Positions 16,174 through 16,462 of a stretch of DNA of 64,000 bases are shown here, piece by piece (position 1 is the first letter of the stretch; each line of letters begins with the position of its first letter). Source of the DNA: Escherichia coli. GTDB lineage: Bacteria > Pseudomonadota > Gammaproteobacteria > Enterobacterales > Enterobacteriaceae. Under the pieces are notes generated by a model. That model saw only the letters and a program-made list of their open reading frames with translations. It had not been told where the DNA came from and searched no databases. The position numbers and the translations under genes are program-made. The DNA lies in the NCBI RefSeq assembly GCF_003334815.1, contig NZ_QOWO01000001.1; one strand, written 5' to 3'.

Positions 16174-16462
16174 CCCAATGAATACAAACGACGAATAAAT
16201 AGTATTTATTAATGATTACGATAAGGTCAGAGACTACACAGAAGCGCCACAATGCCTTTTGTCGATTTAAGGCGACCGGACAAGGCTTCTTCTTAATATA
16301 TTCATAAATTAAATATCATTCACAATAAAAACAAAAAAACTCAAACTCATTATTTAAATCAATGTTCATTTTCACACTGATGAAAATACTATCTCATTTA
16401 TCTTTTATGCCTATATAATCCACCGCATTATTGTCATTTTATTTTGGATATCCAATTTTTTC
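16174..16462. promoter_or_regulatory. AT-rich divergent promoter region between yghO and the acyl-AMP ligase operon
   Basis: 289 bp, visibly AT-rich with runs such as aataaaaacaaaaaaact; contains a TATAAT hexamer at 16413-16418. Confidence 0.3.

Follow-up and report, generated by a model that had tools for sequence, protein, structure and literature searches.

An AT-rich divergent spacer as the probable control region of a two-armed ceramide locus in Escherichia coli

The spacer between yghO and the fatty acyl-AMP ligase gene aasR was analysed in a 64,000-nucleotide stretch of Escherichia coli chromosomal DNA (RefSeq assembly GCF_003334815.1, contig NZ_QOWO01000001.1), the whole of which is referred to below as the window. 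The two genes point away from each other. On the minus strand, yghO (14953-16095) encodes a reported homologue of Caulobacter CC_1154 (cerS/bCerS), a ceramide synthase-type N-acyltransferase. On the other side of a 376-bp non-coding spacer (16096-16471), four genes follow one another on the plus strand: aasR (16472-18193), for a fatty acyl-AMP ligase/acyl-AcpR synthetase that begins MSNKIFTHSLPMRY when read from the revised start described below; cerR (also epi, 18190-19104), for a reductase of the NAD-dependent epimerase/dehydratase family; acpR (19136-19384), for a specialised acyl carrier protein; and spt (19384-20556), for a serine palmitoyltransferase. Spt matches the proteobacterial-type equivalog NF047599 at 599.2 bits (cut-off 500), and AasR matches the NCBIfam fatty acyl-AMP ligase profile NF006624 at 877.9 bits (cut-off 600). 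Acyl carrier protein profiles match AcpR at E 6e-9, which lies under their cut-offs, and the assignments of both AcpR and CerR combine the RefSeq annotation, profile searches and PMC9386255. For YghO, no Pfam, NCBIfam or PDB sequence match was found, and its family is as yet undescribed among profiles; we follow PMC9386255 and PMC11324152 for its homology to CC_1154/cerS, and the latter uses the name cerS for CC_1154.

The locus is the published dihydroceramide cluster of E. coli B and enterotoxigenic E. coli (ETEC), and it corresponds to EC042_RS17425-17445 in enteroaggregative E. coli 042. Padilla-Gomez et al. studied it as ECD_02850-02854 of BL21(DE3) (PMC9386255). In that work, AasR loads a fatty acid onto AcpR, and Spt condenses the resulting acyl-AcpR with serine to form 3-oxo-sphinganine; the BL21(DE3) AasR, AcpR and Spt proteins are active, and epi/cerR and yghO (aca) are homologues of Caulobacter genes required for dihydroceramide (PMC9386255). 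Both arms of the divergent pair are thereby reported to serve one pathway, ceramide synthesis (PMC9386255, PMC11324152). A literature search found nothing published on the spacer, its promoters or its regulators. Directly after spt, the minus strand at 20591-26317 carries genes annotated as LptG and LptF paralogues, a YtfJ-family protein, a hypothetical protein, a "lipopolysaccharide biosynthesis protein" and an ATP-binding protein; their products may act in the handling or export of the cluster's lipid.

The borders of the spacer depend on the start codons chosen for the two flanking genes. A first-pass annotation of this DNA had placed them at 16174-16462 (289 bp), positions that correspond to the first possible start codons of the maximal open reading frames (TTG 16173 for yghO and GTG 16463 for the ligase). 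These limits describe an AT-rich stretch correctly, but the gene-to-gene spacer is longer, at about 16096-16471. In RefSeq, yghO starts at ATG 16095, and the aasR models start at the equivalent of 16505 in strain 720632, BL21(DE3) and Ecol_AZ162 and at the equivalent of 16472 in SE15 and 89-3156. In alignments across genera, the block GGTGTATATGTC around ATG 16472 is the sole strongly conserved sequence of the spacer, and 15 of the 22 spacers compared at genus level, Pseudomonas included, share the 10-mer TGTATATGTC. The alignment to NF006624 begins at residue 6 of the longer ligase form. Because of this cross-genus conservation and the fit to the NCBIfam profile, ATG 16472 is preferred as the most likely translation start of aasR. 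A Shine-Dalgarno-like GGTG (16465-16468, plus strand) is found within the conserved block, 3 nt upstream of this ATG, and the RefSeq aasR models that start at 16505 are probably 11 residues short. At the opposite border, the Met of yghO that is conserved across genera is ATG 16077 (MIKIEKV...). An AAGG Shine-Dalgarno sequence precedes it in other genera and is gone in Escherichia, where the extra upstream start at ATG 16095 likewise lacks a Shine-Dalgarno sequence.

The stretch at 16174-16462 has a G+C content of 29.4%, compared with 51.4% for the window, and sits at the 0.43rd percentile among all 289-bp windows of the 64 kb. A 200-bp profile gives 25-30% G+C at 16200-16499, with 49-57% on either side. 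The flanking genes have 50-55% G+C, with the exception of the small acpR (41%), and this windowed composition confirms the first-pass statement that the spacer is much more AT-rich than the genes beside it. The revised spacer has 31.9% G+C (68% A+T). When at least 60% A+T in 100-bp windows is used as the criterion, the full AT-rich zone covers approximately 15953-16550 (~600 bp) in three overlapping tracts (15953-16161, 16087-16285 and 16191-16550) and takes in the spacer and the 5' coding ends of both flanking genes. TpA steps occur at 9.3 per 100 bp in the spacer versus 4.4 in the window, and A/T tracts of at least four nucleotides occur at 24 per kb versus 10 (2.4-fold). Among the 24 annotated intergenic regions of the window (at least 80 bp; mean G+C 42%), the spacer is the second-longest and has the fourth-lowest G+C. 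Owing to this rank, and to four comparable G+C troughs in a 289-bp scan of the 64 kb, its AT-richness is not exceptional. The lower-G+C intergenic regions are yghS/yghT (27063-27235), pitB/gss (29477-29767) and sslE/glcA (5023-5506), at 29.5-30.2% G+C.

This composition bears on the first-pass suggestion of nucleoid-protein silencing, which can be put in fuller form: H-NS, with its partners StpA/Hha, would nucleate on the AT-rich DNA, block or bridge the two promoters and so be the main cause of a quiet locus, with expression requiring counter-silencing under host-like conditions. The approximately 600 bp at or above 60% A+T, a TpA density twice that of the window and an A/T-tract density more than twice that of the window are in agreement with such a mechanism. 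Composition alone is not diagnostic of H-NS, however, because the window holds three further spacers of equal or greater AT-richness. The nucleation motif TCGATAAATT is not enriched in the spacer (one site with two mismatches in 376 bp, compared with 1.3 per kb window-wide), and the excess of promoter-like sequences that marks many H-NS-bound regions is missing. In addition, the 50-55% G+C of the flanking genes would confine binding to roughly 0.5-0.6 kb, and short H-NS tracts tend to have weak effects in the K-12 chromatin immunoprecipitation (ChIP) literature. Since the flanking genes have an ordinary E. coli G+C content, spreading of an H-NS filament over them is not expected. A literature search found no ChIP or hns-mutant data for this locus and no paper linking H-NS to the cluster; the H-NS family paper in Nucleic Acids Research (2020) concerns Salmonella. 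Together with the comparative and expression evidence given below, these observations leave H-NS as the main cause a possible but doubtful explanation. A more modest role, in which H-NS or another nucleoid protein binds as an added brake local to the promoters, is plausible from the base composition.

To locate constrained positions, eight Escherichia sequences were compared; the window was joined by three diverged alleles from E. coli and by four loci from the YghO scan described below (one labelled E. coli, one E. whittamii and two Escherichia sp.). Substitutions and indels are frequent in the centre of the spacer and on its yghO side (16096-16356), a part that also contains a 51.5% G+C island (16225-16290) with no conserved structure. 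The aasR-proximal module (16357-16476, plus strand) is nearly invariant, with invariant runs at 16357-16368, 16380-16410, 16412-16423, 16425-16436 and 16447-16476, and likely contains the core promoter, the 5' untranslated region and the translation start. Within this module, a candidate -10 hexamer with the consensus sequence TATAAT is placed at 16414-16419 (plus strand), for which the best -35 element at 17-bp spacing is ATCTCA (3/6). The predicted aasR transcription start lies at approximately 16426, which would give a leader of ~46 nt ending in GGTG-TAT-ATG. A -10-like element is present at the aligned position in Hafnia, Pseudocitrobacter and Citrobacter amalonaticus. No promoter-like site in either direction of the spacer beats shuffled sequence (best scores of 7.4-8.7 versus a best-of-shuffle mean of 9.9), and the best matches in the yghO direction are weak, with none above best-of-shuffle. 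The promoters on both sides therefore appear to be weak, or else to rely on activation or on an alternative sigma factor. On the minus strand, a candidate ArcA-type direct repeat, GTTAATTATTTGTTA (16112-16126), is located 17-31 bp upstream of yghO ATG 16095. This single match with at most two mismatches compares with 0.0115 expected, 12 motifs having been tried, and its first repeat is altered in cryptic Escherichia clades; it is kept as a weak, speculative lead.

Several other features of the spacer were considered and set aside. A hairpin-like sequence at 16254-16287 with an adjoining T-rich run is not conserved in other Escherichia. The small open reading frames of 29-42 residues lack conservation. 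The palindromes ATTTTCA-N6-TGAAAAT (16368-16387) and TTGGATATCCAA (16445-16456) are allele-specific and not conserved. A sigma-54-like site at 16129-16144 has a -24 element that lacks GG and is deleted or altered in other Escherichia, and a single palindromic match to the Fis pattern (0.34 expected) is the -10 block itself. RNA folds of four spacer sub-regions on the relevant strands gave z scores of -0.65 to -0.94, with no leader, terminator or small RNA (sRNA) signal. An Rfam scan of 15500-17000 returned no match at E ≤1, and a whole-window scan at the Rfam gathering thresholds returned no match near the spacer. Elsewhere in the window, Rfam matches were obtained at 7268-7489, 32729-32805, 43775-43845 and 49626-49689, the families being the C0719 sRNA (glcA-glcB spacer), two naRNA4 (REP-type) and ES173. 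In published data sets, the table of CRP sites from ChIP sequencing of ETEC H10407 has no site at this locus, and the sole mention of yghO in ExcludonFinder is the glcC-yghO pair of K-12.

The arrangement of the two genes is widely kept. A scan for YghO with one genome per species yielded 44 loci, in 41 of which both genes were found, and all 41 have the divergent aasR/yghO layout. These loci, mostly from Enterobacterales, range from the Escherichia clades to Serratia, Erwinia, Pantoea, Hafnia and Pseudomonas capeferrum, and their spacers measure 303-1128 bp. In every one of the 41, spacer G+C is below that of the flanking genes, by 6-24 points, and no conserved open reading frame was found in the spacers of related loci. 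Because the back-to-back layout, the long spacer and the G+C dip recur in 41 loci, the designation of this DNA as a divergent control region, already made in the first-pass annotation, is well supported: two opposed units that serve one pathway are separated by DNA that holds no conserved gene. The related spacers all keep a low G+C without keeping the sequence, and this too speaks for the H-NS explanation. A further observation from the scan is a 430-bp contig of very low coverage in Macrococcus sp. DPC7161, which carries a fragment 99% identical to E. coli YghO and is almost certainly contamination.

In the longer spacers of other genera, a second conserved element of ~180 bp, termed block B, lies in the aasR orientation approximately 200-390 nt from yghO. 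It was detected by nhmmer in 19 of 26 genus-level spacers and in no Escherichia spacer. Its 20-nt core is TTTTACCACTTAATGCTTTT, and its end reads CTTCCGG-aTAC-TGTTTA-N5-TGTTTA-AGT. Promoters of the PhoP regulon carry a box of the form (T/G)GTTTA-N5-(T/G)GTTTA. Seven spacers, from three Serratia species, two Tatumella, Klebsiella indica and Pantoea brenneri, match this box at 12/12, approximately 350-390 nt from yghO. Their half-sites do not vary and their N5 does; the spacer of Serratia marcescens carries TGTTTAGGAAGTGTTTA. By chance, approximately 0.86 PhoP-like sites of at least 11/12 would be expected over all 26 spacers. No -10 element was found at the canonical distance from the box in the genera that bear it, a search with RNAalifold on eight sequences gave no consensus structure for block B as an RNA, and a literature search found no paper linking PhoP to this cluster. 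In the E. coli spacer, the best PhoP-like site scores 9/12, and no PhoP box was found. By this comparison, envelope-stress signals would feed into the ceramide locus in relatives, and some other input would be used in Escherichia. PhoP is a classic partner in H-NS counter-silencing, and the perfect box that Serratia, Pantoea, Tatumella and K. indica carry in their counterparts of the spacer is for this reason a further point in favour of an H-NS mechanism.

The same comparison raises the alternative that the E. coli spacer is a decayed control region, in which Escherichia would have lost block B and the yghO Shine-Dalgarno sequence and the cluster would be poorly expressed, dispensable and repeatedly deleted or interrupted. 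The distribution of block B, the best PhoP score of 9/12 and the AAGG that precedes the conserved yghO Met only outside Escherichia would fit this explanation, as would the state of the locus in some strains. O157:H7 Sakai lacks the whole glc-yghO-spt region (NC_002695.2, 3852167-3876852), where the pheV-linked island SpLE3 abuts a truncated pitB pseudogene, and K-12, which we take to lack the ceramide locus as well, counts on the same side. Insertion sequences are also present in or near the locus in some strains. In strains E272 and WP7-S17-ESBL-04, an insertion sequence interrupts the match to a 3.2-kb probe that covers yghO, the spacer and the ligase, with an ISVsa5-family element next to the split ligase and an IS1203-family element between two yghO annotations. 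Against decay, all five genes are intact in thousands of genomes, and the BL21(DE3) enzymes are active when expressed. The strong constraint on the aasR-proximal 115 bp within Escherichia argues for a working promoter. Taken together, decay is considered very unlikely.

When searched in 5426 complete E. coli genomes, the 3.2-kb probe matches 4572 and is covered to at least 80% in 4087; strain 720632, to which the window is near-identical, matches the probe at 100% identity. The spacer is present in 4161 genomes, and none of these 4161 records has a feature annotated there. With the same site in most E. coli and a host-like G+C content, the ceramide locus is not a typical low-G+C island. Such a distribution is one reason to ask whether the spacer is simply an ordinary intergenic promoter region with no special silencing, with constitutive, low-level housekeeping expression on both sides. 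AT-richness is a general property of intergenic and promoter DNA in E. coli, this spacer is only the fourth-lowest of 24 in G+C, and the cluster occupies the same site with host-like G+C in the 4572 genomes. Several features do not fit such a region. Only one spacer in the window is longer than this one of 376 bp, and the homologous spacers of other genera are long too. The strong footprint next to aasR implies a specific function, and motifs of regulator type are conserved in this spacer in related genera. The expression data described next point in both directions, and a constitutive, unsilenced promoter region of this sort is on balance regarded as unlikely.

The BL21(DE3) spacer is identical to window positions 15996-16604. 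Because of this identity, and with 5 differences in 5604 bp of the cluster, published data from BL21(DE3) apply to the DNA studied here. Plasmid-borne AasR, AcpR and Spt together produce a 3-oxo-sphinganine-like lipid in BL21(DE3), and no such lipid was seen with empty vectors or when Spt alone was over-expressed (PMC9386255). From the lack of lipid with Spt alone it follows that chromosomal aasR-acpR activity is insufficient under the conditions used (complex medium, 30 °C). This absence of product from the chromosomal genes favours H-NS silencing and, since it persists with Spt supplied (PMC9386255), runs counter to simple housekeeping expression. In the part of a BL21(DE3) multi-omics study drawn on here, the Spt protein is undetected in the proteome, and aasR (ECD_02851) has ~80 normalised reads in the control strain (PMC8371096). 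These detectable transcripts speak against H-NS as the main cause of quiescence and, in a count like those of the unchanged genes visible in the table, for an ordinary promoter region (PMC8371096). In the same portion of the data, aasR reaches ~160 reads (log2 fold-change 1.00) in each of two free-fatty-acid overproducers, of which one is an ihfA knock-down, and both engineered strains show very large global expression shifts (PMC8371096). IHF was considered as the cause of the doubling and set aside, as the second strain shows an equal doubling and the spacer has no exact match to the IHF consensus. Fatty acids are the substrate of AasR. The doubling cannot be assigned to IHF, fatty acids or normalisation. 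The first-pass claim that the locus is silent in laboratory culture is thus partly supported: the absence of a lipid product and of detectable Spt in BL21(DE3) agrees with it, and the aasR transcripts do not. A fair reading is that expression of the ceramide locus in BL21(DE3) is low, not zero.

The explanation that best accommodates these observations, to which we assign a probability of roughly 60%, is that the spacer is the shared non-coding control region of a two-armed ceramide locus, with a weak aasR promoter that depends on a particular condition or activator. The spacer would control both the leftward arm, yghO (cerS), and the rightward arm, aasR-cerR-acpR-spt. The rightward arm is proposed to be driven from the constrained ~115-bp module next to aasR, composed of a perfect -10 TATAAT with no usable -35, a U-rich leader of ~46 nt, the GGTG ribosome-binding site and ATG 16472. 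A promoter built in this way would be intrinsically weak and would probably need an activator or a particular condition, and such weakness is proposed to account for the low transcripts and the lack of detectable product in BL21(DE3). For the leftward arm, which has no convincing promoter and no Shine-Dalgarno sequence in Escherichia, expression is probably low too. The A+T richness would make nucleoid-protein binding plausible as an added local brake. Composition, gene identities, the conserved layout, the conservation footprint and the identity of the spacer in BL21(DE3) are shown; where the promoters lie, whether they need an activator and what part H-NS may play are inferred.

Four points weigh against this explanation. 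The assignment of TATAAT draws only on sequence and conservation, and its position weight matrix score of 7.4 is below the best-of-shuffle mean of 9.9. The near-invariance of 16357-16476 could reflect a constraint other than a promoter. No activator site can be assigned: in consensus scans of the spacer for CRP, FNR, Fur, PhoB, PhoP, FadR, SlyA, IHF, Lrp, PmrA, CpxR, RcsB, OmpR, Fis, sigma-54, sigma-E and sigma-S, no match stood out convincingly from chance. Finally, as the aasR read count is similar to those of the few unchanged genes visible in the table of the multi-omics study, "weak" is a relative term (PMC8371096).

A stronger form of regulation can also be envisaged. In this conditional switch, nucleoid proteins acting on an activator-dependent promoter would hold the locus near-off until an envelope or lipid signal turned it on, the PhoP-box module of relatives having been replaced in Escherichia by a different input; candidate signals are such as free fatty acids, oxygen limitation sensed via ArcA, or a host cue. 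We regard this extension as rather unlikely on the present evidence. If the switch existed, sphingolipids would be made by most wild E. coli in growth conditions yet to be examined. E. coli is not regarded as a sphingolipid producer, and about three quarters or more of complete E. coli genomes (4087 of 5426 at ≥80% of the probe) carry an intact locus. Any expression of the locus would be decided within the 376-bp spacer. As a bidirectional promoter region, the AT-rich spacer is ordinary in kind; its interest lies in the locus that it controls. Definition of its promoters and regulators would reveal when E. coli makes ceramides, a question that bears on outer-membrane biology and on interaction with the host.

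The spacer can be compared with three known systems. H-NS-silenced AT-rich promoter regions of enterobacteria include those of proU, bgl and the sslE/yghJ-gsp locus. Like these, the region studied here is a long AT- and TpA-rich sequence upstream of genes with low laboratory expression, near envelope-related functions. It differs in that the AT-rich DNA extends over only ~0.6 kb and the genes have host-like G+C, with neither an enrichment of the nucleation motif nor an excess of spurious promoters. From its composition, an H-NS mechanism at the spacer is plausible. With the PhoP-activated promoters of envelope-remodelling genes, the homologous spacers of seven other genus- or species-level loci share the box; the E. 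coli spacer differs from them in having neither the box nor any of block B. The third system is the Rhodobacteria-type ceramide cluster of Caulobacter crescentus and E. coli BL21(DE3), for which the published studies treat the enzymes, not the regulation (PMC9386255, PMC11324152). The gene set of aasR, cerR, acpR, spt and cerS is the same here, and between ECD_02850-02854 of BL21(DE3) and the present cluster there are 5 substitutions in 5604 bp and an identical spacer.

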